IMG/VR virus record: IMGVR_UViG_3300010970_000172
Coordinates: 1-63,260 of that record
Direction: 5' to 3' (one strand)
Source of the DNA: a virus
Length of the DNA: 63,260 nt
Shown here: positions 1 through 63,260 of the stretch, piece by piece
Numbering within the stretch: the first letter of the stretch is position 1
Layout of the letters: each line of letters starts with the position of its first letter
Program-made: the position numbers and the translations under genes
The notes under the pieces: model-generated
Seen by the model: the letters and a program-made list of their open reading frames with translations, nothing else
Told to the model about the DNA's origin: nothing
The model's database searches: none

Positions 1-55
1 AAATTTAGAACGCTGATACTCTTGTAACTTAAAGTCGCTTGAGTCAGAAAGCATT
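1..55. repeat. 55-bp terminal direct repeat, exact copy of 63206..63260 (assembly overlap of a circular or circularly permuted genome)
   Basis: aaatttagaacgctgatactcttgtaacttaaagtcgcttgagtcagaaagcatt is present at both window ends. Confidence 0.95.
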
Positions 56-6000: not shown

Positions 6001-8874
6001 CGTTCCTCTTTGAATCTTTGCATCACGAACTACCATCATACCGCCAAGCTCCATTAAGAACTCTTCTGCCATATCAATCTTCTCTTGGTCAGTAGCATTC
6101 TTAGCGTCCTTAGCGTACATATCAGCAAACTTCTGTAGCTTATCTGTTACGTTAGTAGGAAGAACCATTATAATGCGTTTCTGCATCTGAATGAATGCCT
6201 CTGGAAACTCTACTGCAATCTGAGCGAACGCTTCGTGGAAGATTTCGTGAGACACAGTATTGTCCTGCATAGTCATTCGGTTAACATATATGTCATCCCC
6301 AACTTTTAATGCATTAGAATCCTTGGCTTTATTAACCGATTCTTTCATCGAATAACCTTTCTCCATTAAAGCTTTAGCTACCTCTGTCCTATTATCAAAA
6401 AGAATAATACGACCATTTGGATTCATTTGCTTTAAAGCTTTGTTCTGATTATTAAGACGTGCTCTTTGCTCCTTTGTTAACTTGTTAAGTATTGGATTAG
6501 CTTCAGCTACCTCTACGTTCTCATCGACAACATAGGCTCTATCTGGAGCAAACTTAACATTCTTCTTGGCTTGGTTAGCCATTAACATTGGAATCAATAC
6601 AGGTGAATTAGTAGTAAATTCTTTGCCCGTTCTTGTATCACGAACTCTGATTTGTTCTACCTCGTCATCCTCGTTCATTTTTGTATCAACTACCTCTAAG
6701 TCACCTTTAATTTTAATGGCGTTATTTACTTGAGTAGATTCTTTTGTCTCAACATTAACTCTAAATTTAGGCTTAGGTTGTAATGAAATTTGACCCTTCT
6801 CATTTACTTGTGCAGTAACTTGGAATGGGTTTCCTTTCTCATCGTATGCTGTGAAGATTTCGCCTTTAAAGCGATTATTTCTAACACGTTGAGCTCTTTG
6901 TAAAGCACGAGCTCCAGTCGTTGCGATACGACCCTCTGCTTGAGATTCTGTTAAACGAGTTCCGTTCTCTGTAGCATTAATATATGTTTCAAGATTACGA
7001 ATCTGACCATTAACCTTACCTAAGGCTTGGTCTTTTTCCAAAGGAGTAAGCTCTGAGTTATTGTAAATAACTTGCTCAATCTCATTTAGCTGGTCAGCCG
7101 CTTTATTTAATTCAGAAACCTCTACATCCTTACCTTGCTCCATCGCCTTCATTGTGTCAGCGTGGTCTTGTTGGAATACTGTATATGCGTTATTGTTAGC
7201 TAAGAACTCCTCAGCTTTAACTTTAGCTTCTTCTTGTCTTAATTTTAATGTGTCGCTATGTCTATCTCTTTCCTTGTTCCATTGCTCCTCCATTAATCCA
7301 TTAACAAAAGTTACCTTCTCTTGAATCTTTTCATCAATGCCAGCTTGAACAGCTTCGTCTTTAGCGTTTCTCTTATCTCGCTGCAATGCTTCCATTTTAT
7401 GAAGAGCATCGATAGCTTCAGAACGCTTCCCTACATCTTCGATTGAAGCGATAGCTGTATAATCATCGTAAGCACCACGTTCTTGGAACTTCATTATATC
7501 GTCAATCTTTTGATTTGCGATTTGACGAGTTTCATCAGATAATGTAGTATCGTTGGCTACTTCTTTTAAACGCTCAATAGATTTCTTTTGTGTCTCATCA
7601 AGTTTATTAGATGTAGCTAATACAAGTGTACCAGACATTGAACCACCAGATAATGAGCCAATTATGAATGCATCAGCAGCGTTTTTCGCAAGAGTGCCAA
7701 GTTCATCCCAAGTTACTTTTTGATTATCAGATTGAGCTTTATCTACAATGAAATTTCCTACTGTAGATAAAATCTCTTCTAATCCTTCTTCTCCAGCACC
7801 TCGGAATATTCTTTTAGCGGCAGGTAGCATACCTCTTACAAGTTGTCTTTTTACTTGTTCTGCACCTTCTTCTGCTACAGCAGTAACAATAGGAGACCCT
7901 CCAATTAATGCTTGCCCCGTTCTTCTTAGTTCCTTTAAGTTAGTTTGGAATAATGATTCAGTAGTTCCTTCAATTAAACCACTCCAAATTGATTTAACAA
8001 TTTCGCTACCTGAAAGACTTTGGTCTTCAGCGTAAGCTTTGTTAATCTCTGCCCCCGTACCCAAAACTGCTGAACCAGTAAATATCTCTGCAGTTCCTCC
8101 CGATGAGGCTAACGCAAGTGACATAGGAATTGTTCTTGCCGCACTTAATGTAGCAATTTTTGCCGCATCAGCATAATTTCCTTCAGAAATAAAATCAATT
8201 ACACTTTTATTCTTGTCGATATCTGACTTTTTAATACCAGAATCTTCTAATACTTGCTTAAATGATAAGTCTCCAATCTCTTGTAAATATCCTGCAGCCT
8301 CATAAATTTGCCCTACAACACTTGGTAGTGGAGCGTTTTCTGATGTCTTAGATGTTTGGAATCCAAAGTCTTCTTTTTTATCTATACTTGAATCGTACCG
8401 CTGTTTAAGATAATCCTGCTTTTCCTTCCAAGACATCTTCGATTGCTTATTTAGTTCATCAGAATCTAATGCAAGCATATCTGAAACCTTGCGACCTACT
8501 GACTGCAAATCTGAACCTACTAAAGCTCCCGCAATCTTAGCGTCAGCAAACCAGTTTCTTGGATTAGCAATATCTAATGCAAGAGCAGCAGAACCTAATC
8601 CACCACTAATTACATCGTATACACCAGAAAAGGTAGCATCACTACCGTGATTTAATCCTCTGAAAAATTTGGTAAACAAATTACCCGTATCCGCCCCTTC
8701 ATTCTTAGAAGACCCAGCCATAGAACTTATTCCCCCAGACGATTCCGTATCGTTTTTTTTTTGAAGCGTATCGTATTTTGTTAAATCGGCACGTTCGTAT
8801 CCTGAAGATGATGGTTGCTCGGAACTAACATTGTACTTAGATAAATCTGCTTTTTCAAATTGTTGCTTAGACAT
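1..8874 (-). CDS. Giant virion-associated polyvalent-type protein, first 2,958 codons. The ORF continues across the junction into 62681..63205, for 3,132 aa in total.
   Basis: My manual reverse-strand translation from the ATG at 8874..8872 (MSKQQFEKADLSKYN...) met no stop down to base 1. Its last 18 codons, MLSDSSDFKLQEYQRSKF, equal the start of track ORF 62681..63259. It contains HEIFH (6235..6249) and H-G-G/S blocks. Only short antisense or out-of-frame ORFs are listed in the track here. Confidence 0.85.
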   Translation of the reverse strand, partial: MSKQQFEKADLSKYNVSSEQPSSSGYERADLTKYDTLQKKNDTESSGGISSMAGSSKNEGADTGNLFTKFFRGLNHGSDATFSGVYDVISGGLGSAALALDIANPRNWFADAKIAGALVGSDLQSVGRKVSDMLALDSDELNKQSKMSWKEKQDYLKQRYDSSIDKKEDFGFQTSKTSENAPLPSVVGQIYEAAGYLQEIGDLSFKQVLEDSGIKKSDIDKNKSVIDFISEGNYADAAKIATLSAARTIPMSLALASSGGTAEIFTGSAVLGTGAEINKAYAEDQSLSGSEIVKSIWSGLIEGTTESLFQTNLKELRRTGQALIGGSPIVTAVAEEGAEQVKRQLVRGMLPAAKRIFRGAGEEGLEEILSTVGNFIVDKAQSDNQKVTWDELGTLAKNAADAFIIGSLSGGSMSGTLVLATSNKLDETQKKSIERLKEVANDTTLSDETRQIANQKIDDIMKFQERGAYDDYTAIASIEDVGKRSEAIDALHKMEALQRDKRNAKDEAVQAGIDEKIQEKVTFVNGLMEEQWNKERDRHSDTLKLRQEEAKVKAEEFLANNNAYTVFQQDHADTMKAMEQGKDVEVSELNKAADQLNEIEQVIYNNSELTPLEKDQALGKVNGQIRNLETYINATENGTRLTESQAEGRIATTGARALQRAQRVRNNRFKGEIFTAYDEKGNPFQVTAQVNEKGQISLQPKPKFRVNVETKESTQVNNAIKIKGDLEVVDTKMNEDDEVEQIRVRDTRTGKEFTTNSPVLIPMLMANQAKKNVKFAPDRAYVVDENVEVAEANPILNKLTKEQRARLNNQNKALKQMNPNGRIILFDNRTEVAKALMEKGYSMKESVNKAKDSNALKVGDDIYVNRMTMQDNTVSHEIFHEAFAQIAVEFPEAFIQMQKRIIMVLPTNVTDKLQKFADMYAKDAKNATDQEKIDMAEEFLMELGGMMVVRDAKIQRGTMHKVMLSIREFLSKWAGKLKLKGLQNLINNSVFSETASIEELAKFFESLSESIRLGNKADLSYLENQIEQNRMLAYSPSTTTEAQEQEDVDALNEDFAGDLFEPTNLNITGTLTEEPPKSKRKPKKADKPDIKQQRGSYELMPHPFIEVADMIGKRYSATMSDHTRVGEYRNSKSGVVVSNLMGGVFYPYIQGIRDAGIAWASVTPKAAREMVMNAINQDATLVYRMARATGSRGNVNFNEIALAELIAPVMNGKITEEEFLTQLNNKLNTISNGKQLGAGKHFLGKYGKDSGKTITVNKTEVIKVTDKDGKLKNKTVPVLDKDGKNVRIKAPRLEVRSIEELRKGLVGESFSKRGGFWSTVLKDSWNKKSSGEWYKFLEANEVTSLEEIVNGLAEQETDTANDHDIVAAIKIAAPEYTEDGLAKIYTTRKSLVNEKKGIFFIDAPDHPSYPYVVKGEPVGVFNEFQNVTDYFPVIKEWIAKKRLNSPYKAVETMGKELVASRETIKAQKNLTIASQGETVQDILGVSEEEGNVLSIIYNADLTPNEKAIMYRQYKRGVMSLSDVKNYAGVIDLEEFSKSGDIGKWARANLAMKKFEAEKTDGKVNSEYISFEDIPNIKAQKTAQKQMTPVFHGGEVQDITTLSGDQIFFVANDKEEALAYAEGNEGNLIEMNIDKSKIASEDTIRGILNELGVEDEYMIHELIDPRFEDSYIGEELTSELFSRLEDEGYEGGEFADTAISSKSKETQNMFLINPSESLSNNDYIGIKLANEFQAEKLLNEGYRPLVNGEVMEAATQEDVDNLFEKTSNLVNESKLQMVKPSEFEKYNNAKNELTEDQDKLSAEIEEKAVDADKLQFQIKPQKILYHGSPWNFNRFESKSIGIGEGRQAFGWGMYFSTDINVAKSYSKANQGNKFRQLGLLDVLGKPSTASVFGNNSDGLREQAYKLLQSTNTTLAQWKQFLEDNKGFLGTKISKANRNKLYQAFGERNLYKVAVNDRVNGLQDGFWLDWNGQIGFANANQILMGIKNTMSVLGQKMQNEGKSKKVDTKKFLTLTDSYNIAEAIVMGFNTRELSQMNGGDFYIWVTESFRNSGSYRMNKFDPQQMASMLLSSAGIDGNRISTFATFGGNNDGHKNYIVFDSDAITVINKSTIKQQKKSYNVLSAQEESQERREGASVKKAFKGLMKGSTDELNKGMHELYRGLYKMSFDRMVNVRKEMEDSQFNRSMYLMFNKAGASQFGNFKFEKAFNKIYKGLTPEQIKALDAAIFLRRVIAVDENFDKQRAEFEAKLEAIKQIIANDPSIAQDYADEIRILKSKIKEKARPSHGREDAIVWGDRKVKANKESAEATLEKMKDDLGQEEYNDLISRSDMYFSEFSNLLKYKMENGLITKETYELFKDYNYSPRKFLDYAFGIEERDEQGNVTGNVLLNSNQFHFRGSILSSEDIKNIKDGKADDYLMSDSRKLLQGAMIMTEVKVATNKMVKGLANDSQYTNQGWVKPMKYERYNDGTIKTNPDGSYKYLKEDTGFRKMVYKVDGKEYAYQLREDLAREFLDEELKDLKGEQGSLRRKIYDTTTKWSGSQAVRFFATGINTGFFISNIPVDVMSQVNVTDIYAGGVAGKYKQAMGGTLELSKRLLMMETGKSDPYVEKLLQEYAESGGLMMSQSQEGIGKNFGGKFVEYLSMFGNISEVASKLNSYRTVRDRLIEEHYQSKKQNPVGEALEQIKEEAAYKARAAMDYHRGGLLSKMWDGYVPYFNVFTQGAFISWKYIKNNKVDFFNKISKAGIALAGLTVYNMMVAGDDYDNDDVQMDLLNKIVIFMPWKNEDGTRPYVKISVPSIVKGWLNTYQHIGEGAYYKLVSDEPSRQAKWRAGVTDRWLKGFTPALSSFVSIPVAKAGLEYGFNYDLYKQMPIFNNSDSKPVSVGNEGLNSENVLEAFKMFGKFTGLSPARSQKAFEDIVPALNPLVQMGYSITDKIIDSHNKMLSDSSDFKLQEYQRSKF

Positions 8875-39460: not shown

Positions 39461-39571
39461 GGTGATACTATAGTAGCACCCCCCTGCTACCCCGCAATCA
39501 CCCCCCCTGCTACTCGGCAAGCATCTACAAATGTTTTAGTGCTACTATAGTTGCATCTACAAATGTTTTAG
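39461..39571. repeat. Iteron cluster A. It holds the near-palindrome GGTGATACTATAGTAGCACC, C-run/TGCTAC boxes, and two tandem 32-bp units TGCTAC-N7-GCATCTACAAATGTTTTAG.
   Basis: 39461..39480 is the reverse complement of 49472..49491. TGCTACTCGGCAAGCA (39508..39523) is repeated at 49452..49467. The 32-bp units are at 39508..39539 and 39540..39571. Confidence 0.8.
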
Positions 39572-40215
39572 TTTTTACATAAAATATCACTCTGACGTAT
39601 CGTATAGTAGGTTTTGCCTTCAATCACGTTTTCAAAGTTTGTATTTTTGTCTATGACAACAATTTCACCTGCGTTAACATCAATTGCATCAACATTTTTT
39701 AATGGTTTTCCAATATGAGCCAACTTTGCCCTCTTAGTTGAGTCTTCTTTTGTAACAGATGTAACGAGACCAAAAGAATTTTTTACCGCAGACATCTTAA
39801 CTCCACCAACTTCTATCTCCTCAAATTCATCTTCGTTTTCAACAATCTTCTCGCAGAACGTCCACCCACCAATAGGTATAATATCAGTACCCCTAACAAC
39901 GCAGAAAATCCAGCAATAAGGAATGCGATAATAGTTACCATATATACAAGCATTCTCATCGAATGTAGCAAGGTAATGAAAGTATACTTTATCGCCCACC
40001 CGTACATCTGCTTCAATTTCAATTCCGTCTTCGTTATAGCATTTGCCTTTTGGTACTGCTTTAACCACTCCGTATATTCTTGCATTGTGTGTGGGTTTAA
40101 ATAAAGGGTCTATAAATATCTGTAATGACCCATATTGAACTGTGTCATCGTACTGTGCACCAATCTCTACAATCAGAGAGTTAGGCGATGCTTGAGTAAG
40201 CTCGTATGATAGCAT
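39568..40215 (-). CDS. Tandem Cpn10/GroES-like protein (putative phage co-chaperonin)
   Basis: Two halves each carry a GroES-like pattern: ARIYGVVKAVPKG..VRVGDKVYF, and RAKLAHIGKP..VNAGEIVVID..YYTIRQSDIL. Confidence 0.4.
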   Translation of the reverse strand: MLSYELTQASPNSLIVEIGAQYDDTVQYGSLQIFIDPLFKPTHNARIYGVVKAVPKGKCYNEDGIEIEADVRVGDKVYFHYLATFDENACIYGNYYRIPYCWIFCVVRGTDIIPIGGWTFCEKIVENEDEFEEIEVGGVKMSAVKNSFGLVTSVTKEDSTKRAKLAHIGKPLKNVDAIDVNAGEIVVIDKNTNFENVIEGKTYYTIRQSDILCKN

Positions 40216-40907: not shown

Positions 40908-40931
40908 TAATCCATAAACAATCAAAACAAT
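40908..40931 (+). repeat. 24-nt leader element TAATCCATAAACAATCAAAACAAT, copy 1
   Basis: Identical to 41234..41257. The core AAACAATCAAAA also occurs at 43002..43016 and 44841..44853, each time 7-12 nt before an ATG. Confidence 0.85.
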
Positions 40932-40938
40932 TAACACA

Positions 40939-41223
40939 ATGAAAAAAGTAGAACAAATTGCAATGTTGGTAGCATCTCAAATCTTCCTACCAATGACCAT
41001 CTTCAGCATCCATCACAATGCATTCGCTGAAGCAATCATCTGTACCATCGGATGGGCTGTGATGAGTGGAATTACATTGGTGATGTTATCATCCGACAAG
41101 GCAGAAGATGTCCCAATGACAGCGACATACAATGGTCAAGAATTCAAGGATGAACAAACCATTCACGAATGGAGAGAAGAATTCGAATTCGATTATTTCA
41201 TCGACAATGCATCTCAAAACTGA
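40939..41223 (+). CDS. Small membrane protein, 94 aa
   Basis: Two hydrophobic helices and an acidic C-terminus. First early gene. Confidence 0.55.
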   Translation: MKKVEQIAMLVASQIFLPMTIFSIHHNAFAEAIICTIGWAVMSGITLVMLSSDKAEDVPMTATYNGQEFKDEQTIHEWREEFEFDYFIDNASQN

Positions 41224-41233
41224 TAAACTAAAC

Positions 41234-41257
41234 TAATCCATAAACAATCAAAACAAT
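41234..41257 (+). repeat. 24-nt leader element, copy 2
   Basis: Identical to 40908..40931. Confidence 0.85.
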
Positions 41258-41263
41258 AATATT

Positions 41264-42958
41264 ATGTCAATCGTAACAACAATTTTCGGACAATCAATCG
41301 ATTCATCAGTAGCATCTCAATTACACGATGGGAGATGGTTTTCAAGAGTAAACTACATCAATGATGCCACATCAAATGAGGCAACAAAGATTACAGCAGT
41401 AAGCAATTGGAATGGCTTGGATTGGGAAACGGCATATGCATTGAAGACAGATGCAATTCGCATCCATCGTTCACCTCAAGGTGGCAATACATACATCACA
41501 AAACGCTCATTTGATTTGGGCAATTGTCCCGCTGTTCAAATCCAATACGGAAGCAAGACATACACATTCAAATCTGCAATAGACAGATTCAATGCGGGAT
41601 ATGCTTGGTCAATGGATGAATTCAGATGGATTGACCTTAAGGTAGCAGATAGACATATGTGGGGAGATTTGCGATTGGTTAGACAAGGTGATGAGGATTA
41701 CAAGTTTGTGTATCGTAGAAATGGTAGCTACAATTCTGCTGATTATGTTGATGGAAGAGACCTTGTACGGATGTCGCAAGTTAGTTCTTTCTCATTGCCA
41801 ATCTACTACCATCCATCTCACCCATCATTGGTATTCGATGCTATTAACCATTGCACTATTCCTCTTGACATAGCAACAACATTGCATACAATAGTGGAAG
41901 GTGAATTGGTTAAATTTTATACCGAATCAAGAAGATTGTGGAGATATTCAGAAGGTGAAATGGTGGAATTAAAAGTGACAGCAGATTCACTTAGCATCTT
42001 AAGACCATATCGCAATACCATACACGATGGAATCCGTTATTTCGACAGAGAATCTGCTGTAGCAAATGGATATACACAAATCTTTTGTTCACATTGCAGA
42101 AGAGATGTAGATGCATCTCACGATATGGTGGATTGTGCATCTCGTAACTTTCGCAATGAGCGTTTCGGTTATCATTCATCACAACAAGTGAAGACAATCA
42201 ATATGCCATCTCAAATCGTATTCAAGATTGGTGTTGAAATCGAGAAACAAACACGATTGGGAGCAGTTAATGGAGCGAATGAAATTTATCACGAATTCGG
42301 ATGGAAGAAAGAAAGAGATGGTTCGTTGGATGATACAATCGGATACGAATTGGTATCACCTTGTTATCCATTGTTCACCGATGACCTTATCAATGAGGCA
42401 AAGGCAATCGAGGCAAGATTCCCTAACTTGATTGATTCGAATGAGGACAAGGCAAACTTAGGAAGATTCAAGGATGCTTGTGGTGGTCACATCCATTTCA
42501 GTAGAAGTTACACAAGTGGACAAGATACATTCGAGATGATTAGTGGTTATATGCCATTGTTCTATGCCATCTACAAGAAGAGAATTAACATCTCTTATTG
42601 TGAGGCAAAAGAGAAGAACAGAATGAAGAATTCTGTTAACACAAAATATCAAGCAGTAAAGATTATGGACAAGAGAATCGAATTCAGAATCTTCCCTTTG
42701 GTGGAGAATGTAAAGACATTGGAATGGCGAATTAATTTGCTAAGAATTATGGCTAACAATCCATCAGATTCGTTCATCGAAGTTGCGAATATGTTATGTG
42801 ATACATCTTCTGATTTGCACAAGCATATGCTCAAGATTTTTACTCTTGACAAACTGAAGAGAAGAATATCTGATTCCATTTCAATGGCAGAGCAATTCGA
42901 TAGAGATTATTCCTCTTACGATTTCACAAATCTTCGTTCAGCAATTAGTTCATTATAA
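41264..42958 (+). CDS. Amidoligase-family (glutamine-synthetase-like COOH-NH2 ligase) protein with an unknown ~310-aa N-terminal domain
   Basis: GVEIEK (42230..42244), ERDGSLDDTIGYELVSP, CGGHIHFS (42479..42502) and RIEFRIFP (42673..42696) match the amidoligase motif series. Confidence 0.6.
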   Translation: MSIVTTIFGQSIDSSVASQLHDGRWFSRVNYINDATSNEATKITAVSNWNGLDWETAYALKTDAIRIHRSPQGGNTYITKRSFDLGNCPAVQIQYGSKTYTFKSAIDRFNAGYAWSMDEFRWIDLKVADRHMWGDLRLVRQGDEDYKFVYRRNGSYNSADYVDGRDLVRMSQVSSFSLPIYYHPSHPSLVFDAINHCTIPLDIATTLHTIVEGELVKFYTESRRLWRYSEGEMVELKVTADSLSILRPYRNTIHDGIRYFDRESAVANGYTQIFCSHCRRDVDASHDMVDCASRNFRNERFGYHSSQQVKTINMPSQIVFKIGVEIEKQTRLGAVNGANEIYHEFGWKKERDGSLDDTIGYELVSPCYPLFTDDLINEAKAIEARFPNLIDSNEDKANLGRFKDACGGHIHFSRSYTSGQDTFEMISGYMPLFYAIYKKRINISYCEAKEKNRMKNSVNTKYQAVKIMDKRIEFRIFPLVENVKTLEWRINLLRIMANNPSDSFIEVANMLCDTSSDLHKHMLKIFTLDKLKRRISDSISMAEQFDRDYSSYDFTNLRSAISSL

Positions 42959-42965
42959 TTTAAAT

Positions 42966-42983
42966 GGGGAGAGTAATCTCCCC
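42966..42983 (+). terminator. Hairpin GGGGAGA-GTAA-TCTCCCC with a weak T tract (possible partial terminator or attenuator)
   Basis: Perfect 7-bp GC-rich stem between the amidoligase and GATase genes. Confidence 0.35.
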
Positions 42984-43024
42984 TTATCCAAACAAATTTT
43001 CAAACAATCAAAACAAATAATAAT

Positions 43025-43873
43025 ATGTGTATCGCAATTTTAAATTCACCAAATGTTACTTTCGAAAAATCTCTTATCAAAAATTGTTGGGATAACAACA
43101 GAGATGGTGGTGGAATGATTTGGTCAGATGAATCAAACAATCAGTTACATATCTTCAAAGAGGTTAAATCATTCGAGGCATTCTACAATAAGTATGTCGA
43201 GGTTAGAAGAGATTTCCCGACATCCAATGTCGTACTACATTTCCGTATCAGCACAAGTGGTGGAGTAAACGAAACGAACTGCCATCCATTTCAAGTTAAC
43301 AAGGATATTGCATTCGTTCACAATGGAGTAATTGGTGAACTAAACGGAATAGATGCTAAGAAGTCAGATACGAACTTGTTCAATGAAATCTATCTTCGTA
43401 AGCTACCATCCGATTTCCTTTACAATGAGGCAATCATCAATCTTATTAAGAAGTTCATTGGTAGCAGTAAGTTAGTATTCTTGAATGCATACAATGAATA
43501 CACGATTGTCAATGAGCAGTTAGGTCAGAGAGATGCTGAATTCGAAGGATGTTGGTTTTCCAATGCAACATACAAGAAGGTTAACTATGTTGATTATGGT
43601 GGCAAGAAAGTTTACAATAACAGCAAGCCAACATACACGAATCAAACCATTGTGCATTATCCTAAAGTAGTAAACAATCCTACCATTCCATTCAAGGAAG
43701 ACCTTAAGACTAACGATAAGAAATGGTATGATTATGTGGCTTATGAAAATGAGGATGATGCTATCTACGATGAATGGCAAGAGAGATACGATTATCTCAA
43801 GGCTAAAGATGTAGCATCCTTGACATCAGCCGAATGGGAAGAGATGGAGAATCTCAAATGGTATTGCATCTAA
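43025..43873 (+). CDS. Class-II (Ntn-hydrolase type) glutamine-amidotransferase-like protein
   Basis: N-terminal MCIAIL (Cys2 nucleophile), NRDGGGM, HFRISTSG, NCHPF, FVHNGVI. It has a ~90-aa acidic, aromatic-rich C-terminal extension. Confidence 0.6.
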   Translation: MCIAILNSPNVTFEKSLIKNCWDNNRDGGGMIWSDESNNQLHIFKEVKSFEAFYNKYVEVRRDFPTSNVVLHFRISTSGGVNETNCHPFQVNKDIAFVHNGVIGELNGIDAKKSDTNLFNEIYLRKLPSDFLYNEAIINLIKKFIGSSKLVFLNAYNEYTIVNEQLGQRDAEFEGCWFSNATYKKVNYVDYGGKKVYNNSKPTYTNQTIVHYPKVVNNPTIPFKEDLKTNDKKWYDYVAYENEDDAIYDEWQERYDYLKAKDVASLTSAEWEEMENLKWYCI

Positions 43874-43893
43874 TACCATCTCATTGATTACAG

Positions 43894-43924
43894 AATCCCC
43901 TACAGAAATGTGGGGGATTTTTTT
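43894..43924 (+). terminator. Intrinsic terminator after the GATase-like gene
   Basis: AATCCCC-N12-GGGGATT followed by TTTTT. Confidence 0.65.
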
Positions 43925-44167
43925 ATGCCCTATGCAATCGCATCCACTATCAACAACAAATCTGCTGTAGCATCACAATCGTTATGCTGTACCATTATAA
44001 TCGTTTAGAATCAAGATATCAGCATCCAACATCACATCACATCTGTATAATCGATTCTCAAGGGATTAGATGTTATTAATTGCTGTATCTTATTAATCAT
44101 TTCTTTTTTTTTCAGCAGATTCTGATCCCACAGGTTTCTTCTGGTTAAAACAGGTTTGATTTCAAGG

Positions 44168-44190
44168 ATTTTTTAGGTCAGTCTAAAAAT
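44168..44190 (+). repeat. Hairpin motif copy 1: ATTTTTTAGGTCAGTCTAAAAAT
   Basis: Consensus TTTTTTAGGTNAGTCTAAAAAT (inverted repeat TTTTTAG / CTAAAAA around a 6-nt loop). Confidence 0.85.
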
Positions 44191-44270
44191 TCTTTAATTT
44201 TCCGTGAACAGGGTGAAATTCCATTTTCACAGGTCTAATCCCTCTGGGCAAAACAGATCCCTTTAGAAAG

Positions 44271-44293
44271 TTTTTTAGGTGAGTCTAAAAATT
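44271..44293 (+). repeat. Hairpin motif copy 2: TTTTTTAGGTGAGTCTAAAAATT
   Basis: Same consensus. Confidence 0.85.
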
Positions 44294-44382
44294 TCTTTCA
44301 ATCTGGTACAAGTTCCTAAGCTGGTGAAGCTGATGATCACAAAAGATCCCGTCTGGTGCAAATACAGGTTAAATCGATGTGG

Positions 44383-44410
44383 TTTTTTAGGTTAGTCTAA
44401 AAATTTATTT
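44383..44410 (+). repeat. Hairpin motif copy 3: TTTTTTAGGTTAGTCTAAAAATTTATTT
   Basis: 28 nt identical to copy 4. Confidence 0.85.
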
Positions 44411-44572
44411 GTAAGTCACAGGTTACAGATCACAAATCTTTCTGGTCCAACAGGGGAAAATCTCCCAAAAACCAAAAACACTATCAACAACGACTGAACC
44501 CGATGGCAAAATTTCATATATACAGGTGAAGTTTCTGGAGTGTGTCTGGTGAACCGACTAAGCTGATAAGAT

Positions 44573-44600
44573 TTTTTTAGGTTAGTCTAAAAATTTATTT
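44573..44600 (+). repeat. Hairpin motif copy 4: TTTTTTAGGTTAGTCTAAAAATTTATTT
   Basis: 28 nt identical to copy 3. Confidence 0.85.
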
Positions 44601-44864
44601 ACTGATTTTCTGGTCTGGCTACAGGTGAAGCTGGTAACTTGCAGGATGAAAAATTCCGATCCCAAGAAGTTTTTTTTGTCACTATATAATATGCGTGTCG
44701 ACCAATCTGAGACGCAAAATCTGTGATATATAATGATAACCTATGCGATAAAAGTCACTGAAATTAAAGTTTTTCTTAATATATTGTTGCAATTTTAAAT
44801 CTAATGCTTTAATATTGTACATCATTTAACAATTGACCAGTAAACAATCAAAATTTAAAAACTT

Positions 44865-45857: not shown

Positions 45858-46151
45858 ATGAATGTACGAGAGATTTTAGAAGGCAAAGACATCTCATTAA
45901 GAGATAACTATGTGCAGACAATTAAAAGGTTTGCAAAGAATCGTAATGCAAGTCAAGAGGACAAAGCTATCGTAACGATTTGCGACATCCACTTTTGGGT
46001 GGGCGAAGTTTCTGAGAAGCAGAGAGAGTGGCTAATCAAGTATGCCAATCGTAACAGAATTGTTGGTGAACAACAAGCTATCAAGGAAGTTCACGATAAA
46101 ATTATTGAGGCTATTAAGGATCAGCCGATTGCAGATTTATTTAAAATTTAG
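45858..46151 (+). CDS. Hypothetical protein, 97 aa
   Basis: Track ORF. Its stop codon lies inside the reversed hairpin motif. Confidence 0.55.
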   Translation: MNVREILEGKDISLRDNYVQTIKRFAKNRNASQEDKAIVTICDIHFWVGEVSEKQREWLIKYANRNRIVGEQQAIKEVHDKIIEAIKDQPIADLFKI

Positions 46152-46166
46152 ACTAACCTAAAAAAT
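46147..46166 (-). repeat. Hairpin motif, reversed copy: TTTAGACTAACCTAAAAAAT
   Basis: Reverse complement of the 44383-type motif. It overlaps the TAG stop of 45858..46151. Confidence 0.8.
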
Positions 46167-46169
46167 ATT

Positions 46170-46817
46170 ATGAAGAGAGTATTAGTTGCTTGCGAAGAAA
46201 GTCAAGCTGTAACATTAGCGTTTAGAAAGTTAGGATTTGAAGCCTATAGTTGTGACATCCTACCTTGTAGTGGTGGACATCCCGAATGGCATTACCAACA
46301 AGATGTGTTTGAGGTAATAGATAAAGGTTGGGATTTAATGATTGCACATCCCCCTTGTACCTATCTGTCTGTAAGTGGAGCAAGGCATCTGTACAACAAG
46401 GATGGTAGCCCTAACGAGGAGAGGTACGAGAATCAGCGACAAGCTTTATTGTTTGTATACAAGCTGATGATGGCGAAGATTCCACGAATAGCTATCGAAA
46501 ACCCCATTAGCGTAATCTCATCGAAGTTGCGTAAGCCCGACCAAATCGTACAGCCATATTGGTTTGGCGATTCAGCGAGCAAGTCTACTTGTTTGTGGCT
46601 AAAGGATTTACCGAAGTTAGTACCAACAAATATGGTCGACAAGGGAGAGTTTAAGGAGTGGATAGATAGTAAAACAGGAAAACCGAAACGACAAGCGATG
46701 TGGTATTACGAAGCATTGCAGAAGGCTAAGTCGCCAGAAGAGCGAAGAAGTTTAAGAAGTAAAACATTTCAAGGCATAGCCGATGCTATGGCAGAGCAAT
46801 GGGGTGCTGTCCTTTAG
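46170..46817 (+). CDS. Short C5-cytosine-methyltransferase-like protein, 215 aa
   Basis: AHPPCTYLS (Pro-Cys motif IV) and AIENP (motif VI). The N-terminal VLVACEESQ replaces the usual FxGxG loop. Collinear with 59786..60409. Confidence 0.55.
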   Translation: MKRVLVACEESQAVTLAFRKLGFEAYSCDILPCSGGHPEWHYQQDVFEVIDKGWDLMIAHPPCTYLSVSGARHLYNKDGSPNEERYENQRQALLFVYKLMMAKIPRIAIENPISVISSKLRKPDQIVQPYWFGDSASKSTCLWLKDLPKLVPTNMVDKGEFKEWIDSKTGKPKRQAMWYYEALQKAKSPEERRSLRSKTFQGIADAMAEQWGAVL

Positions 46818-48926: not shown

Positions 48927-49121
48927 ATGGATTTAGAAACTACAGCATTTAATGTCATTTGTAAAGTAAAGATTGCACATAGCAAGATTGAATTGGCACA
49001 ATGGGAGTCGGTAATTAAGTATGCCAAACCAGAGATGTCAGCATTTGATATGATCCTTAATAAGATTGAGGAACAGGTTGATATTATAAGAGATTTAGAA
49101 GCCAAATTAAAAGATAATTAA
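48927..49121 (+). CDS. Hypothetical protein, 64 aa from the MDLETT start
   Basis: Track ORF 48870..49121, trimmed because its N-terminus is the terminator hairpin. Confidence 0.45.
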   Translation: MDLETTAFNVICKVKIAHSKIELAQWESVIKYAKPEMSAFDMILNKIEEQVDIIRDLEAKLKDN

Positions 49122-49813
49122 TGAAGTGGTATGCCATAATTCCTAACGAAGTTCTTTCGAACAAGGAGTTGACCTCAAGTGCGAAATTATTGATTGGAGT
49201 TCTTGTTAGCTTGTCTAATAAGAATGGCTATTGCTTTGCTTCAAATCAGTACATTTCGGATGTACTTGGTATCTCTTCAGCGTATGTTCGTTCGCTAATA
49301 AAAGAGTTAGAAGACAAGAATATTATTACACGAGAATCTTCACTCAAAAGTTCGGGCGATTTAGGCACACGAATGATAAAAATAGTTGACCTATCGATGT
49401 TAAAGGAGGATTCTGAAGACAGAGGGGGTGCTACTATAGTATCAAGGGGGGTGCTACTCGGCAAGCAGGGGGGTGCTACTATAGTATCACCATATAATAA
49501 AGTTAATAATACAGATAATAAAAAAGTTAATAATGACCGATTCGAAGAGTTTTGGGATGCATACGGAAAGAAGGTTGGAAAGGAGAAAGCTAAATCCAAA
49601 TGGAGCAAGCTTAAGGAGTCTGATAAAGATGCAATTTTTTTAGCCATCCCTAAATATAAAGAATCAAGACCCGACCCGACCTACAGGAAAGACCCCGAAA
49701 GGTACATCGGACATCGGGTGTGGGAGGATGAGATACCATCATCTTCTACACAGCCAACAACATCACAAGTAAACCAAACAGATTTTGAAATTAAAATTCC
49801 CGAAAAATGGTAA
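49121..49813 (+). CDS. Replication initiator or organizer with an N-terminal winged-HTH (HTH_36/DnaD-like)
   Basis: LTSSAKLLIGVLVSLSNKNGYCFASNQYISDVLGISSAYVRSLIKELEDKNII. The C-terminus reads FEEFWDAYGKKVGKEKAKSKW. Iterons lie inside the gene and DnaB follows with a start/stop overlap. Confidence 0.6.
   Translation: MKWYAIIPNEVLSNKELTSSAKLLIGVLVSLSNKNGYCFASNQYISDVLGISSAYVRSLIKELEDKNIITRESSLKSSGDLGTRMIKIVDLSMLKEDSEDRGGATIVSRGVLLGKQGGATIVSPYNKVNNTDNKKVNNDRFEEFWDAYGKKVGKEKAKSKWSKLKESDKDAIFLAIPKYKESRPDPTYRKDPERYIGHRVWEDEIPSSSTQPTTSQVNQTDFEIKIPEKW
49424..49491 (+). repeat. Iteron cluster B (putative origin): three G5-6-TGCTACT boxes spaced 22-23 bp, followed by an AT-rich tract to about 49535
   Basis: GGGGGTGCTACTATAGTATCA / GGGGGGTGCTACTCGGCAAGCA / GGGGGGTGCTACTATAGTATCACC. 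They encode the GGATIVS repeat. Confidence 0.75.
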
Positions 49814-51240
49814 AGCCCTTCGCTAAATTAGTTGACCATCTTTTAGAAAAGGATATGATATCCTATCTACTTGAGCATTCGCATACCTTAAATGAGGTAA
49901 GTAAGATTATAAGTTCAGAGTCCTTCGTTGATGCATTAAACAAGGCTTCATTCTCTGCGATGGTTGAACTTTCTTCTATCAATAGTACATTCAATCGTTA
50001 CGATGTATTTCGTAGCCTTAAATCAAAAGAATCTGATTTAGGTATTGAGGCATCTCCTATCCTTTCGATGCTACCAACAAGGTCGGTAGATTATATGCAA
50101 GTTGCATTCGAGATAAAGGAGTTGGAGAACAAGAGACATATGTTTGATATGGCTAATAGGATTCACTCAGCATTAGATAATAATGAAGAGTTATCTACCT
50201 TATCTTCCATTATTGAGCAAGGATTGTCGTTGGTGGAGGATTCTACTGCATCGCAAGAAGTTTATTCTATCCAAAATGTTTACGATGAAGTAATCACGAA
50301 GATGGAGGAGTCGGCTGGAATCGATAAATCGTTTAGTGGTATTGATACAGGTAGTCGCAAGTTGAACTATACATTAGGTGGTTGGCAAGAGGGGATGACT
50401 ATTATAGCGGCTCGACCATCGATGGGTAAAACTATCGTTGGGTTGGAGCATACGAAGGCTTGTGCTAAGTCGGGTAAGCGAGTTTTGTTTTTAAGTTTAG
50501 AGATGCCTAAAAATTCTTTATTGTATCGATACATCTCATCAGAGATTACCGAATACAATTACTCTGATCTCAAAGCAAATCGAATTTCTCCCGAAGATGT
50601 TAAGAAGATTAAGCAGTCTCAAGCGAAGGAGTTAAGAAGTTTACCTATTTATTTCTACGATTCAGACAACAGGGATATTAATTACTTGTCAATGATGATG
50701 ACTGCCGAAGTTCGCAAGAACAAGATTGATATGGTAGTAATCGATTACCTTCAGTTGATTCGTGACAATCAAATTAAGGGGCAAGATGATTTCTCACAAG
50801 TGTCATCCGTTAGTAACAAGATACAGAAGTTGTCAAGAAAGTTGAGAATACCTATCATTTGTTTATCACAGCTTTCGAGAAATGTTGAGTCACGACCTAA
50901 CAAGACACCTATGCTTGCTGACTTAAGGTCATCGGGTAACATCGAGCAAGATGCAATCGTTGTGATTGGTTTGTATCGAGATGACTACTACAAGTATGTT
51001 GATGCGAAGGCGAATGGTCAAGCAGTTGCACCTATGGATAACACATTAAAGTATGTAATCCTAAAGAATCGAGATGGCGAAGTTGGAGATGTAAACAGAT
51101 TTGTTGATGTGAAGACAAACAGAGTTGCTGATAGTGAAGACGAGTTGTTTAGGTTCACAAAACCAGAAGTGCTGTACAAAGATTCTGTGTTGAATACAAT
51201 GACTAATGTATTTGATAATGTTCAAGAGTCCCCTTTTTAA
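49807..51240 (+). CDS. dnaB: Replicative DNA helicase, DnaB family
   Basis: ARPSMGKT (Walker A), VVIDYLQLI, PIICLSQLSRNVESR, DLRSSGNIEQDAIVV. Confidence 0.9.
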   Translation: MVKPFAKLVDHLLEKDMISYLLEHSHTLNEVSKIISSESFVDALNKASFSAMVELSSINSTFNRYDVFRSLKSKESDLGIEASPILSMLPTRSVDYMQVAFEIKELENKRHMFDMANRIHSALDNNEELSTLSSIIEQGLSLVEDSTASQEVYSIQNVYDEVITKMEESAGIDKSFSGIDTGSRKLNYTLGGWQEGMTIIAARPSMGKTIVGLEHTKACAKSGKRVLFLSLEMPKNSLLYRYISSEITEYNYSDLKANRISPEDVKKIKQSQAKELRSLPIYFYDSDNRDINYLSMMMTAEVRKNKIDMVVIDYLQLIRDNQIKGQDDFSQVSSVSNKIQKLSRKLRIPIICLSQLSRNVESRPNKTPMLADLRSSGNIEQDAIVVIGLYRDDYYKYVDAKANGQAVAPMDNTLKYVILKNRDGEVGDVNRFVDVKTNRVADSEDELFRFTKPEVLYKDSVLNTMTNVFDNVQESPF

Positions 51241-51898: not shown

Positions 51899-52060
51899 AT
51901 GAGAAACCTAATTTACATTCTGTTGATATCAATGATATCGCAGTCGTGCTTTCATCGGAGTTATGTTTGCAATAAGACAAGGATTCCGAAGTCGAGAGTT
52001 AAGATGATTCACAAGCTACAGCGTGAATATAATTACAAACCTTATAAATTTATTCGGTAA
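51899..52060 (+). CDS. Small putative lipoprotein, 53 aa (below the track cutoff)
   Basis: MRNLIYILLISMISQSCFH.. (signal peptide plus Cys), with a TAATG overlap with the next gene. Confidence 0.35.
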   Translation: MRNLIYILLISMISQSCFHRSYVCNKTRIPKSRVKMIHKLQREYNYKPYKFIR

Positions 52061-52869
52061 TGGAGATATACAAGGAACTGAATAAGTTCAAACACATTAA
52101 ATACTTTGATGCCCCGCACAAGTATTTCATCGGAGAGCAAGAGTTGGTAAGTGGTACATCGTTTCTTGGAAAGATTAAGCCAAAGTTTGATGCTCAAAAG
52201 ATGGCGAAAGGTACAGCTAAGAAGACAAAGCGTTCTGTCGAAGATGTTCTTGAGGAATGGGACTACAAAAGAGATTTCTCTGCAATGAAAGGAACATTTG
52301 TTCACAGCTACGCAGAAAACTTTTGGTCTAACAAGGTATTCCCTTACGATTTTGAGTTGCCAAATGAAAGGTTTGGCGAAGATGGAGCATCTAACTTAAA
52401 GGAAAGATATGAGGCTTGCATTCGTTTGTTCGAGGATTTCTACAAAGATGCATCTTCAAGTCTAATCCCGATAGCCTCAGAGTTAGTTGTTGGGGACCAG
52501 CATTTACCTGTTTACGATGAAGATGGAGAACTTATATCTTCGGGAGTTGCGGGTATGGTCGATGGGTTATTTTGGAACGAGAAACAGAATGAGCTTCAAA
52601 TCTGGGATTACAAGACTAACGGAAAGATTAGGATGAGTTCCGAATATCGTAAGCGTTTCAATCCTCCTATTGCTTTTATTGAGGAATGTGAATACGAGAC
52701 TTATTCGCTACAGCTAAACCTGTACAAGTACATCATTCAAAAGAACACAAACCTAAAGATTGGCAAGTGCTATCTTGTTTGGTTGCACGAGGATAACCCA
52801 TCGTACCAAGTTATCGAATGTAAGGAGTACCAAGATGTAATTAGTTTACTTTTTAAACCAAGAAAATAA
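52060..52869 (+). CDS. PD-(D/E)XK nuclease, RecB/Cas4-like exonuclease
   Basis: GTFVHSYAE, MVDGLF...LQIWDYKT (D..D-x-K), YSLQLNLYKY (QxxxY). Confidence 0.6.
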   Translation: MEIYKELNKFKHIKYFDAPHKYFIGEQELVSGTSFLGKIKPKFDAQKMAKGTAKKTKRSVEDVLEEWDYKRDFSAMKGTFVHSYAENFWSNKVFPYDFELPNERFGEDGASNLKERYEACIRLFEDFYKDASSSLIPIASELVVGDQHLPVYDEDGELISSGVAGMVDGLFWNEKQNELQIWDYKTNGKIRMSSEYRKRFNPPIAFIEECEYETYSLQLNLYKYIIQKNTNLKIGKCYLVWLHEDNPSYQVIECKEYQDVISLLFKPRK

Positions 52870-59290: not shown

Positions 59291-59789
59291 CTTGTATCAA
59301 GAGAAACTATGTAGGCTGTTCGCTGAAAATGTTTTTCATACAAACGAGGATATGTATGTTAGGGTCAACAACAGGAACCCTTCAATAGTAAAAGAACAAA
59401 TTTATGCGGGCAAGATGGCTGAATACGCTGTCTACAATTTCTTAATAAAGAACTACGACAAGGTAACTCCTCCCGATATTATGATTTACGATGTCAGCAA
59501 GAAGAGTTATGATGCTGACCTTGTAGCAAGCGACAAGAGTGTCCACATTAAGTCGTGTACATCGGGGTCAAAGTATCCTGTTAGCTGGCTATTTCAGCCT
59601 ACTGATGGTATCACAAAGACTCCTAATGATACCGACATATTAGCACTTGTTATTTATGAGCAAGGGACTGAGTTCACTTGCTACTTTGTTAAGGCAATAG
59701 ATATGCTCGACAAGTACGAGAATCCAATCAAGGAGGAACTAATAAAGTTAGGCAAGAAGATGTTGTACGAGAAAACTATTTTACAATGA
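59256..59789 (+). CDS. Hypothetical protein, 177 aa; possible restriction-endonuclease-like fold
   Basis: GKMAEYAV ... IMIYD ... DADLVASDKSVHIKS is weakly PD-(D/E)XK-like. Its stop overlaps the start of the methyltransferase-like gene. Confidence 0.3.
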   Translation: MPPKKVKLIAPNLYQEKLCRLFAENVFHTNEDMYVRVNNRNPSIVKEQIYAGKMAEYAVYNFLIKNYDKVTPPDIMIYDVSKKSYDADLVASDKSVHIKSCTSGSKYPVSWLFQPTDGITKTPNDTDILALVIYEQGTEFTCYFVKAIDMLDKYENPIKEELIKLGKKMLYEKTILQ

Positions 59790-60409
59790 AAGTATTAGAA
59801 TTGTTTGCTGGTTCCCGTTCAATCGGTAAGGCGGCTGAGGAGTTAGGGATGGAAGTTTTCTCATCTGATCTATTACCATTTGATGGGATAGATTATGCTT
59901 GCGATATCAGAGAGTTTGATTTATCAAAGCTACCATTTGTCCCCGATGTAGTGTGGGCATCTCCGCCTTGTACTGCATTTTCTGTAGCTTCAATAGGTAG
60001 ACATTGGAAAGGTAGTACAAAAGGTAACTACACTCCTTATACTGATACGGCAAGGCTTGGCTTGGAGTTGCTTGATGCTACGATAAATTTAATTGAGCAG
60101 ATTAATCCCAAGTTTTTCTTTATTGAGAATCCACGAGGTTTAATGAGAAAGATGCCACAGCTTGCAAGCCTGTATCGGCATACAGTTACTTATTGCCAAT
60201 ATGGAGATATAAGGATGAAGCCTACGGATATTTGGCACAATCAAATCAATTATGAACCTAAGCCACATTGTAATAACGGTGACCCTTGCCACGTTTCTGC
60301 ACCAAGGGGTTCGCAGACAGGAACACAAGGATTAAAGGGTGCTTATAATAGAAGTAAGATTCCTCACGAGTTTTGCTTAGAGGTAATGCAATTTTGTAAA
60401 AACAACTAA
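59786..60409 (+). CDS. Short DNA (cytosine-5)-methyltransferase-like protein, 207 aa
   Basis: LELFAGSRS (motif I), ASPPCTAFS (motif IV), FIENPRG (motif VI). Confidence 0.65.
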   Translation: MKVLELFAGSRSIGKAAEELGMEVFSSDLLPFDGIDYACDIREFDLSKLPFVPDVVWASPPCTAFSVASIGRHWKGSTKGNYTPYTDTARLGLELLDATINLIEQINPKFFFIENPRGLMRKMPQLASLYRHTVTYCQYGDIRMKPTDIWHNQINYEPKPHCNNGDPCHVSAPRGSQTGTQGLKGAYNRSKIPHEFCLEVMQFCKNN

Positions 60410-62043: not shown

Positions 62044-62508
62044 TTATTTAAAAGTTAACCTGTAAATAGTCTGATCTACCAATGCACTAATCTCATCCAA
62101 GATGTTTGTTAATGCAGAGTTTCCAATTACCAACATTCTTGCCTCACTCGAAATATAAGACTTAAATGACTCTAAGAATGTAACTGGTGCGTCTAATGTG
62201 TATGGCTTAACCTCCATATCGCAACCCATCATAATGCGTCCGTAGCATCCTTGATATGACTCAATAAACTTGTCCATTAATCCGTTGAATCCATCGTAGA
62301 ATTCTCCTAAAGCCTCGTGTTCTGCAAAAGAAGATGTTTGCCAATGAAATACCTTAGCTTGTGCTGATGCCTCAAGCATCTCACATAATAATTCTTCTTG
62401 TGGGTCTTCTCCATTCTCCTTACCTTCTGAAGACTGAGAGTAGTCGCTCATTAATGTTCCAAAAGCTGTAGCTCTTTTGGCTTTCTGGATTTCAATTAAA
62501 CTTGCCAT
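62044..62508 (-). CDS. Dps/ferritin-like four-helix-bundle protein
   Basis: KVFHWQTSSFAEHEALGEFYDGFNGLMDKFIES. The H-W, H-E, D-x3-E ligand pattern has the same His-to-Asp (15) and Asp-to-Glu (4) spacing as E. coli Dps. Confidence 0.55.
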   Translation of the reverse strand: MASLIEIQKAKRATAFGTLMSDYSQSSEGKENGEDPQEELLCEMLEASAQAKVFHWQTSSFAEHEALGEFYDGFNGLMDKFIESYQGCYGRIMMGCDMEVKPYTLDAPVTFLESFKSYISSEARMLVIGNSALTNILDEISALVDQTIYRLTFK

Positions 62509-63205: not shown

Positions 63206-63260
63206 AAATTTAGAACGCTGATACTCTTGTAACTTAAAGTCGCTTGAGTCAGAAAGCATT
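63206..63260. repeat. Second copy of the 55-bp terminal overlap
   Basis: Identical to 1..55. Confidence 0.95.

Follow-up and report, generated by a model that had tools for sequence, protein, structure and literature searches.

We found that two adjacent plus-strand genes of the viral genome IMGVR_UViG_3300010970_000172 from IMG/VR (63,260 nucleotides, analysed over its whole length and hereafter called the window) constitute a near-obligate, virus-restricted two-gene module, in which an amidoligase-like gene (gene 1) is paired with a gene of the class-II glutamine amidotransferase (GATase) type (gene 2). The locus is a divergent member of a known phage module. In a sample of 80 IMG/VR loci encoding relatives of gene 1, a homologue of gene 2 was present on the same strand in 76, directly downstream in 66 (where the median gap, counted from the point at which the catalytic-domain match ends, was 108 bp) and directly upstream in the other 10. 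Three of the four remaining loci end less than 130 bp from the amidoligase gene, at contig ends, and the linkage amounts to ∼99% of the informative loci. Clustering of the same-strand open reading frames (ORFs) of these loci together with the window yielded no third conserved partner, the next neighbour family being present in 23 of the 81 loci. Among cellular genomes (one genome each of 185,579 species), the subfamily was detected at three loci only, all of them in metagenome-assembled genomes. In the Pfam description of the family Amidoligase_2, GATase-like thiol peptidases and AIG2/GGCT cyclotransferases are named as alternative conserved neighbours, and an initial annotation of the window, made from the sequence without database searches, had pointed to the pairing with the thiol peptidase; the 76 loci bear this out, and a GATase-GGACT fusion in the phage genome MW202828 adds to them.

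Both ORFs were recovered at the coordinates and lengths annotated (Table 1). They are genuine genes rather than chance ORFs, because each has many homologues and because the motifs quoted in the initial annotation turned out to be invariant alignment columns. In gene 1, these are GVEIEK at amino acids (aa) 323-328, DGSLD..GYELVSP at 352-366, GGHIHFS at 407-413, and RIEFRIFP at 471-478; in gene 2, they are MCIAIL, NCHPF, and FVHNGVI.

The catalytic half of gene 1

The C-terminal ∼250 aa of gene 1 are predicted to form a divergent Amidoligase_2 domain, i.e., a carboxylate-amine ligase of the glutamine synthetase (GS) fold, which lies outside the reach of the current Pfam model. Direct searches of gene 1 against Pfam, NCBIfam, PHROG, and PDB sequences gave no match, and Amidoligase_2 was absent even at E ≤ 1; a profile of the gene 1 family likewise had no match among PDB sequences, and Pfam labels were found on none of the 120 homologues listed. 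The assignment was made because four lines of evidence agree. Weak matches to PF12224 (Amidoligase_2) were found in 10 of 36 gene 1 homologues (best E 5.8e-4), and no other family recurred. Using the AlphaFold2 model of gene 1 (mean predicted local distance difference test score, pLDDT, of 92.9) as a Foldseek query against PDB, the top 50 matches were all GS, γ-glutamylmethylamide synthetase (GmaS), or glutamate-cysteine ligase (GCL), with E down to 1.5e-5, a probability of ∼1, and a sequence identity of 9-15%; the TM-scores of 0.18-0.23 refer to the full chain, of which the core alone matches. Against BFVD, 48 matches were obtained at E ≤ 1e-3 (best 3.5e-16), and the named ones were mostly phage “amidoligase” proteins, among them the ones from Cellulophaga phage phi14:2, Pseudomonas phage tf, and a Marvin-like mycobacteriophage. 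Finally, the gene 1 family was aligned by hhalign with a profile built from the bona fide Amidoligase_2 clade of tf_21 of phage tf, a protein that passes PF12224 (24.9 vs. a cutoff of 22 bits). The alignment had a probability of 92.5% and an E of 4.9e-7 over 204 columns (gene 1 residues 320-544), and the motifs of gene 1 and tf_21 fell into register (GVEIEK/GFEVELE, ERDGSL/HDGSL, CGGHIH/CSTHLH, KYQAV/KYSAL, and RIEFRIF/SVEFRGS). The missing direct Pfam match of gene 1 reflects divergence and not a lack of homology. The reading of this half as an amidoligase in the initial annotation was therefore upheld by the hhalign result, the Foldseek matches, and the invariant motifs, while the profile searches proposed there as a check gave a divided answer, since GATase_4 matched gene 2 above its cutoff (see below) and Amidoligase_2 did not match gene 1 directly.

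The gene 1 family is large, with 380 database homologues, and its profile retrieved 970 cluster representatives at E ≤ 1e-3. Across 87 aligned sequences, G323, E325, E327, K328, W347, E350, D352, S354, G360, E362, G407, G408, P431, Y434, Y437, R440, E473, R475, I476, and R489 were invariant, and H409 was conserved in at least 90%. The catalytic motifs of gene 1 (GVEIEK, KERDGSLD, GYELVSP, CGGHIH, R440, KYQAV, and RIEFRIF) belong to the ordered series of GS-like ligases (G-x-E-x-E strand; W..DGSL; E; H-x-H; R; E-F-R), which is kept in the gene 1 homologues and is invariant, in the same order, in the tf_21 clade. Judged from GS active sites, the acidic strand motif and the H-x-H and E-x-R motifs of gene 1 correspond to the metal- and phosphate-binding residues. 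The residues on which the initial annotation had staked its prediction, namely, the GxExE glutamates (E325 and E327) of gene 1 and Cys2 of gene 2, were conserved in all 87 and in all 42 aligned sequences, respectively.

The amidohydrolase encoded by gene 2

From its sequence, gene 2 is predicted to encode a standalone class-II GATase_4 amidohydrolase of the EgtC/YafJ type, with Cys2 as the N-terminal nucleophile (Ntn). It matched Pfam GATase_4 (PF13230) over aa 21-106 with an E of 9.3e-8 and 31.8 bits (cutoff 23), and most of its 574 database homologues carried a precomputed PF13230 annotation. In NCBIfam, sub-threshold matches were found to the N-terminal glutaminase domains of GlmS and PurF and to EgtC (TIGR03442), the last being weak (E 2.8e-4, 20 bits vs. 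a model cutoff of 219). We assigned gene 2 to the standalone type because the GlmS and PurF matches are confined to the N-terminal domains and far under the cutoffs, and because no fused synthase or acceptor domain as in PurF, GlmS, or AsnB was found in gene 2, where the catalytic domain is followed only by a low-complexity acidic tail of ∼85 aa, rich in Trp and Tyr as annotated.

We then aligned gene 2 with 41 homologues (42 sequences), which included those of Mycobacterium phage Marvin, Methylophilales phage MEP402, Xanthomonas phage DES1, and MW202828. M1, C2, N25, G28, G30, H72, R74, G79, N85, F89, H99, N100, G101, D115, W177, and S179 were invariant, so that Cys2, Arg74, Asn100-Gly101, and Asp115 are kept even in these four phages. 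Class-II amidotransferases are characterized by an N-terminal nucleophile, an Arg for the α-carboxylate of the substrate, an Asn-Gly oxyanion hole, and an Asp for the α-amino group. By motif correspondence, and not by structural superposition, we take R74, N100-G101, and D115 of gene 2 to be the equivalents of R73, N98-G99, and D123 of GlmS. Because the invariant residues correspond to the class-II elements, the product of gene 2 is probably a catalytically intact amidohydrolase for glutamine or for a γ-glutamyl amide whose α-amino acid head is free. Together with the GATase_4 match above the cutoff, these residues sustain the class-II, N-terminal-Cys type proposed in the initial annotation. 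The tail after about residue 195 varies by clade, and in the clade of the window it ends in a conserved acidic/aromatic helix (LT..EW.E…LE.Y).

Clade-specific modules and a small membrane protein

The N-terminal ∼300 aa of gene 1 were predicted by AlphaFold2 as a confident, beta-rich fold (pLDDT ∼90-97), both in the full-length model and when modelled alone. A Foldseek search of these 300 aa against PDB returned nothing significant (best E 0.63, probability ≤ 0.2), and the region had no Pfam, NCBIfam, or PHROG match; the domain that the initial annotation had called unrecognizable is thus also without a structural relative by PDB fold search. Faint Tudor/KOW/intein-like fold matches were discarded (E > 0.6). 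The residues of the adjoining zinc knuckle (C275, C278, H286, and C291) were invariant in 28 of 28 aligned sequences, including members with other N-terminal architectures; weak YHS matches were obtained for two family members and zinc-ribbon matches for single members. Elsewhere in the family, the constant catalytic domain is preceded by unrelated N-termini of 125-440 aa. Such variation of the N-terminal modules suggests that the target is a macromolecule or is specific to the host. The N-terminal type of gene 1 and the tail type of gene 2 change together between clades while the catalytic cores remain constant, a co-variation that is compatible with docking of the two proteins or with a common target.

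A small ORF with two predicted transmembrane (TM) segments lies directly upstream of gene 1. A small TM ORF occupies this position in nine of nine members of the close clade, against a background of 16%, and the ORF of the window had no Pfam, PHROG, or PADLOC match. It is a clade-specific accessory and not a part of the core. We considered it as a general third component of the module and rejected this, since it was found in 17 of 69 loci of the wider family against the same background. The idea that the acidic tail of the TM protein mimics the tail of gene 2 was dropped as well, because the former is limited to the window and to L005, its closest relative.

Comparison with known systems

The pairing of the two genes was reportedly noted for phages by Iyer and colleagues in 2009. 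It is described in phiEco32, LUZ24/tf, RIO-1, Marvin, and OM43 phages and is repeated in genome papers (PMC3890496, PMC10580990, PMC5498523, PMC11706807, PMC10945688). In the literature, we found no biochemical characterization of the pair, and the mentions of PF12224/GATase_4 and of phage amidoligases were genome annotations only. The sole functional hint comes from missense mutations in both genes, which were reported in independently evolved Pseudomonas phage lineages (PMC11450229).

In the cassettes of the tf/LUZ24/UFV-P2/phiEco32/RIO-1 type, as in the window, the amidoligase is directly followed by the Ntn glutaminase (tf_21 and tf_22), the same ordered motifs are present, and the genes belong to the replication-strand (early/middle) module of a divergently transcribed podovirus (PMC3890496). 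Unlike the window, the tf-type cassettes have in addition a COOH-NH2 ligase (PF14395), an ATP-grasp ligase, and GGCT, and the pair of DES1 is likewise embedded in a larger cassette with these genes. When the cassette proteins of tf, DES1, and MW202828 were searched by tblastn against the whole window, gene 2 was the only match, and the window ORFs scanned had no Pfam or PHROG matches to COOH-NH2 ligase, ATP-grasp, or GGCT. The window genome carries a minimal form of the module, because the search with the cassette proteins matches gene 2 only. The individual proteins differ as well, the GATase of tf being a 531-aa GATase_6/7 protein whereas gene 2 encodes a 282-aa GATase_4 protein with a short tail, and tf_21 having neither the large N-terminal domain nor the zinc knuckle of gene 1, which in turn remains under the Amidoligase_2 threshold. 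Minimal two-gene pairs are gp105/gp106 of Marvin, gp06/gp07 of MEP401/402, and the pair of Caudoviricetes sp. MW202828. Here, the first protein is large and has its Amidoligase_2-like domain at the C-terminus, and the GATase_4 protein encoded directly after it retains the invariant residues seen in gene 2. At 548 aa (MEP402 gp06) and 574 aa (MW202828), two of the large proteins are about as long as gene 1. Nevertheless, the catalytic domains of the Marvin, MEP402, and MW202828 proteins are only ∼24-25% identical to that of gene 1, their N-termini are unrelated, and the hosts belong to different phyla.

Among cellular enzymes, GS, GmaS, and GCL have the catalytic fold in common with gene 1, while its N-terminal region differs and nothing suggests the oligomer architecture of GS. 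In the PafA/Dop system, a GS-related ligase joins the γ-carboxylate of glutamate to a protein lysine, and an amidase acts before this step or reverses it. EgtA and EgtC of ergothioneine biosynthesis resemble the proposed module in that a γ-glutamyl-forming ligase is combined with a GATase-type enzyme that removes glutamate (PMC5790434). In the Egt pathway, two further enzymes act between ligation and removal, whereas no third gene is linked here, and the substrates certainly differ. MurT and GatD, a ligase and a separate glutaminase that jointly amidate a carboxylate (PMC3267633), provide a precedent for an amidotransferase logic. The likeness of PafA/Dop and MurT/GatD to the window pair is one of logic only, as Dop, a paralogue of PafA, does not belong to the Ntn hydrolases, the glutaminase GatD is of class I, and MurT has a Mur-ligase fold.

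Transcription unit and genome setting

Genes 1 and 2 and the small ORF are supported as one transcription unit, because the intergenic gaps are short (40 and 66 nt), a leader 12-mer is common to the genes, and a terminator stands at the end (Table 1). The 12-mer AAACAATCAAAA has only four exact copies in the 63 kb, all on the plus strand; each copy ends 10-11 nt before an ATG, and together they precede the first four plus-strand genes, one copy per gene. It is a shared leader, which perhaps serves translation initiation or regulation of the genes that are expressed first from this strand. The strong terminator (dG -19.3 kcal/mol, z -3.2) starts 18 nt past the stop codon of gene 2. A second hairpin, GC-rich and with a GUAA tetraloop, was found in the 66-nt gap between genes 1 and 2 (dG -13.6 kcal/mol, z -3.5, with 0 of 200 shuffles as stable); it is probably not a terminator because a U-tract is absent, and it is possibly an RNA stability or processing element. 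Co-expression of the pair with a small membrane protein gene, as put forward in the initial annotation, therefore agrees with the shared unit, while the early promoter invoked there was not identified in our scans, and “early” is a deduction from the position of the genes.

Table 1. Coordinates of the module and of the elements of its transcription unit in the window.
Feature	Position	Strand	Basis
Small ORF, 94 aa, two predicted TM segments and acidic tail; first gene of the unit	40939..41223	+	ORF, two hydrophobic 19-mers
Gene 1, 564 aa: beta-rich N-terminal region, C2HC zinc knuckle, predicted GS-fold Amidoligase_2-like catalytic domain	41264..42958	+	
Gene 1 aa 1-274, beta-rich N-terminal region; candidate targeting/docking domain	41264..42085	+	
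Gene 1 aa 275-291, zinc knuckle C-x2-C-x7-H-x4-C	42086..42136	+	
Gene 1 aa ∼318-564, predicted carboxylate-amine ligase domain and helical C-terminal cap	42215..42955	+	
Hairpin GGGGAGA-GUAA-UCUCCCC between genes 1 and 2	42966..42983	+	Folding vs. shuffles
Gene 2, 282 aa: predicted class-II Ntn (Cys2) domain aa 1-∼195, variable acidic/aromatic tail aa ∼196-282	43025..43873	+	
Intrinsic terminator closing the three-gene unit	43892..43927	+	Hairpin then U7
Leader 12-mer AAACAATCAAAA, four exact copies	40916-40927, 41242-41253, 43002-43013, 44842-44853	+	

The first 55 nt of the window (1-55) are identical to its last 55 nt (63206-63260), an assembly overlap which indicates that the window is a complete genome of ∼63.2 kb, circular or circularly permuted. 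Its TerL is ∼31% identical to the TerL of Flavobacterium, Cellulophaga, Tenacibaculum, and Maribacter podoviruses, and a blastn search of the locus against GenBank phages found no relative at the DNA level. The minus strand up to 40215 carries the structural and packaging genes. The plus-strand module opens with the three-gene unit (from 40939), and its further genes encode a replication initiator, a DnaB helicase, an exonuclease, and two DNA methyltransferases; the initiator protein and the DnaB-like helicase lie at 49121-51240 (+) and the exonuclease at 52060-52869. The scanned ORFs yielded neither a phage DNA polymerase nor a primase, the whole window was devoid of tRNA and Rfam matches, and the PADLOC defence models gave no match.

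Beyond the terminator, we observed a 991-bp ORF-free region (43874-44864) with four copies of a quasi-palindromic 20-mer, TTTTTAGGTNAGTCTAAAAA, at 44170-44189, 44272-44291, 44384-44403, and 44574-44593, where 0.03 would be expected by chance. A fifth copy with two mismatches is located at 46145-46164 (-), before a methyltransferase gene. Short CAGGT/CTGGT motifs stand between the copies, and the region had no Rfam or tRNA match. The TTTTTAGGTNAGTCTAAAAA repeats could be operators, iterons, or an origin. On the other side of the divergent intergenic region, the last minus-strand gene (39568-40215) encodes a 215-aa protein with a GroES/Cpn10 match in two stretches (Pfam Cpn10) and a match to phrog_13932 over its full length, which appears to be a duplicated co-chaperonin. 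Further minus-strand genes encode a DUF5856 protein (62044-62508) and an SU10-type adaptor protein (PF24175; 16597-17274), the latter match hinting at a structural link to SU10/phiEco32-like podoviruses. Such podoviruses also carry amidoligase cassettes.

Proposed mechanism

We infer that genes 1 and 2 act on one amide-bond pathway. By analogy with characterized enzymes, γ-glutamyl ligation by gene 1 combined with γ-glutamyl cleavage by gene 2 is the reading that we rank first, albeit tentatively, and under which the module would make and process a γ-glutamyl-type amide bond on a host molecule. The product of gene 1 would use ATP to activate a carboxylate to an acyl-phosphate and join it to an amine on the target; the carboxylate may be the γ-carboxylate of glutamate or of a glutamyl-containing donor, as in the characterized GS-fold ligases, and the clade-specific N-terminal domain and the zinc knuckle would select the target. 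Cys2 of gene 2 would cleave a γ-glutamyl or glutamine amide on the same pathway, either trimming or removing the γ-glutamyl group or preparing the donor, so that ligation is followed by de-glutamylation, in the manner of EgtA/EgtC, PuuA/PuuD, or PafA/Dop. Expression of the module probably opens the replication-strand programme, and in the clade of the window, the module may act at the membrane. To our knowledge, every characterized GS-fold ligase activates the γ-carboxylate of glutamate, and EgtC is the one characterized standalone enzyme of this GATase type that we know of. In its pathway, the ligase EgtA gives rise to a γ-glutamyl intermediate, from which EgtC takes the glutamate off again (PMC5790434). 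The GATase_4 domain encoded at 5064-6281 of MW202828.1 (L001), right after an amidoligase-like gene, is fused to a GGACT γ-glutamylamine cyclotransferase domain, which ties the module to γ-glutamyl-amine chemistry, and in tf and DES1, the pair adjoins GGCT and ATP-grasp ligase genes.

Several observations weigh against this reading. The donor carboxylate is extrapolated from distant GS-fold relatives, because no enzymology was found in the literature for any Amidoligase_2 protein. A ligase and a hydrolase for the same bond without a third enzyme look futile, unless host enzymes take part or the two serve as writer and eraser in regulation, and a self-contained amidotransferase would account for the strict two-gene architecture no less well. 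Shared ancestry, i.e., co-inheritance of the two genes, confounds the co-variation of N-terminus and tail. As for the timing, a sigma-70 scan and a scan for the Bacteroidota-type TTTG-N17-23-TAnnTTTG promoter stayed at chance level, with no match upstream of the unit, and a constant position of the module beside a strand switch was ruled out, since this was seen in only 28 of 55 informative loci.

Alternative explanations

The most serious competitor, which we consider possible but doubtful, is a two-subunit glutamine-dependent amidotransferase, in which gene 2 would free ammonia from glutamine and gene 1 would activate a target carboxylate with ATP and convert it to a carboxamide, following the logic of MurT/GatD or of asparagine synthetase but built from a GS-fold synthetase and a class-II glutaminase in trans. 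It explains the strict linkage without a third partner better than the γ-glutamyl scheme does, as if neither subunit worked alone; gene 2 retains the full set of glutaminase residues for free L-glutamine, and the co-variation of its tail with the N-terminus of gene 1 would be expected of docking partners. MurT/GatD is a precedent for the amidation of a cell-wall precursor by a ligase working together with a separate glutaminase (PMC3267633). Ammonia supply, on the other hand, leaves both the GATase-GGACT fusion of MW202828 and the GGCT genes of the larger cassettes unexplained. The ammonia-donating class-II glutaminases known to us are all fused in cis to their synthase, and we know of no precedent for one acting in trans. 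The standalone EgtC is a γ-glutamyl amidohydrolase instead (PMC5790434). With either chemistry, the target could conceivably lie in the cell envelope, where modification of a peptidoglycan precursor would block superinfection or protect the infected cell. This target hypothesis, which we regard as rather improbable, draws on the “peptidoglycan modification cassette” (amidoligases, ATP-grasp, GGCT, and GATase) described in RIO-1-like, phiEco32, LUZ24, tf, PaP3, and CW02 phages (PMC5498523, PMC10580990), on the two-TM protein gene directly upstream in all nine close relatives, and on the missense changes that independently evolved Pseudomonas phages acquired in the amidoligase as well as in the GATase next to it (PMC11450229). 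Yet, the ATP-grasp, GGCT, and COOH-NH2 ligase genes of that cassette were not found in the window genome, neither enzyme has a signal peptide or TM segment in its sequence, both being cytoplasmic in nature, and the small TM ORF is found in 17 of 69 loci of the wider family against the 16% background. Moreover, the invariant Arg74 and Asp115, judged from class-II GATase sites, would call for a glutamyl group whose α-amino group is free, unlike that of the D-iso-glutamate in a stem peptide, and the pair has been reported in a virus assigned to Poseidoniales archaea (PMC11706807).

Hypermodification of DNA or nucleotides, e.g., decorated 5-hydroxymethyl-pyrimidines that would protect phage DNA from restriction, is very improbable as the role of the pair in the window genome. 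Amidoligase and amidotransferase Pfam matches do co-occur with the 5-HMUDK/aGPT-Pplase genes of thymidine hypermodification in some viral contigs (PMC8989533). In the window, by contrast, no 5-HMUDK, aGPT-Pplase, dUMP hydroxymethylase/ThyA-like, TET/JBP, radical-SAM, or pyridoxal phosphate (PLP) enzyme was detected among ∼36 ORFs searched with Pfam or PHROGs in what is a complete genome, although very divergent versions could escape such a search. The sole DNA-modification genes detected were paralogous phrog_757 methyltransferases at 46170-46817 (+) and 59786-60409 (+), at opposite ends of the replication module; the ORFs scanned include no phage DNA polymerase, and no nucleotide-metabolism gene is linked to the pair across the 80 loci. 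The initial annotation had listed DNA or nucleotide modification among its options, and these results disfavour it. Equally remote is an auxiliary metabolic role, in which the pair would boost the nitrogen or glutamine/glutamate metabolism of the host during infection. It has been proposed for a Planctomycetes phage with amidoligase, GATase, GGCT, and glutathione synthase (PMC10945688), and the fold of gene 1 is indeed that of GS. Gene 1, however, is without the remaining GS architecture and far from metabolic GS (9-15% identity), and it was not borrowed from a host, because the subfamily is virtually absent from cellular genomes (the three loci mentioned above). Variable N-termini of a targeting type suit an effector better than a housekeeping enzyme, and a glutaminase together with a glutamine synthetase would run a futile cycle.

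Implications for the phage module

Many lineages of phages, among them therapeutic Pseudomonas phages (LUZ24-like), mycobacteriophages, and abundant marine phages, carry amidoligase-GATase pairs, the functions of which have been speculative since 2009. Our analysis adds to this module a large, virus-restricted subfamily that had remained unannotated, reduces its irreducible core to two genes, and describes a ligase with clade-specific N-terminal modules, here a domain and a zinc knuckle without structural relatives. For experiments, cultured phages that carry such a pair offer a better way in than this locus. A bolder possibility, which we hold to be unlikely, is that the pair works as a phage effector sufficient in itself. 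At the onset of infection, it would modify a host macromolecule covalently, a protein or an envelope precursor being either γ-glutamylated or amidated at the expense of glutamine; the N-terminal domain and the knuckle would recognize the target, the GATase tail would dock on the ligase, and the complex would be brought to the membrane by the two-TM protein. If this is true, the family of a thousand clusters would be a toolkit with swappable adaptors for new chemistry of host take-over or superinfection exclusion.

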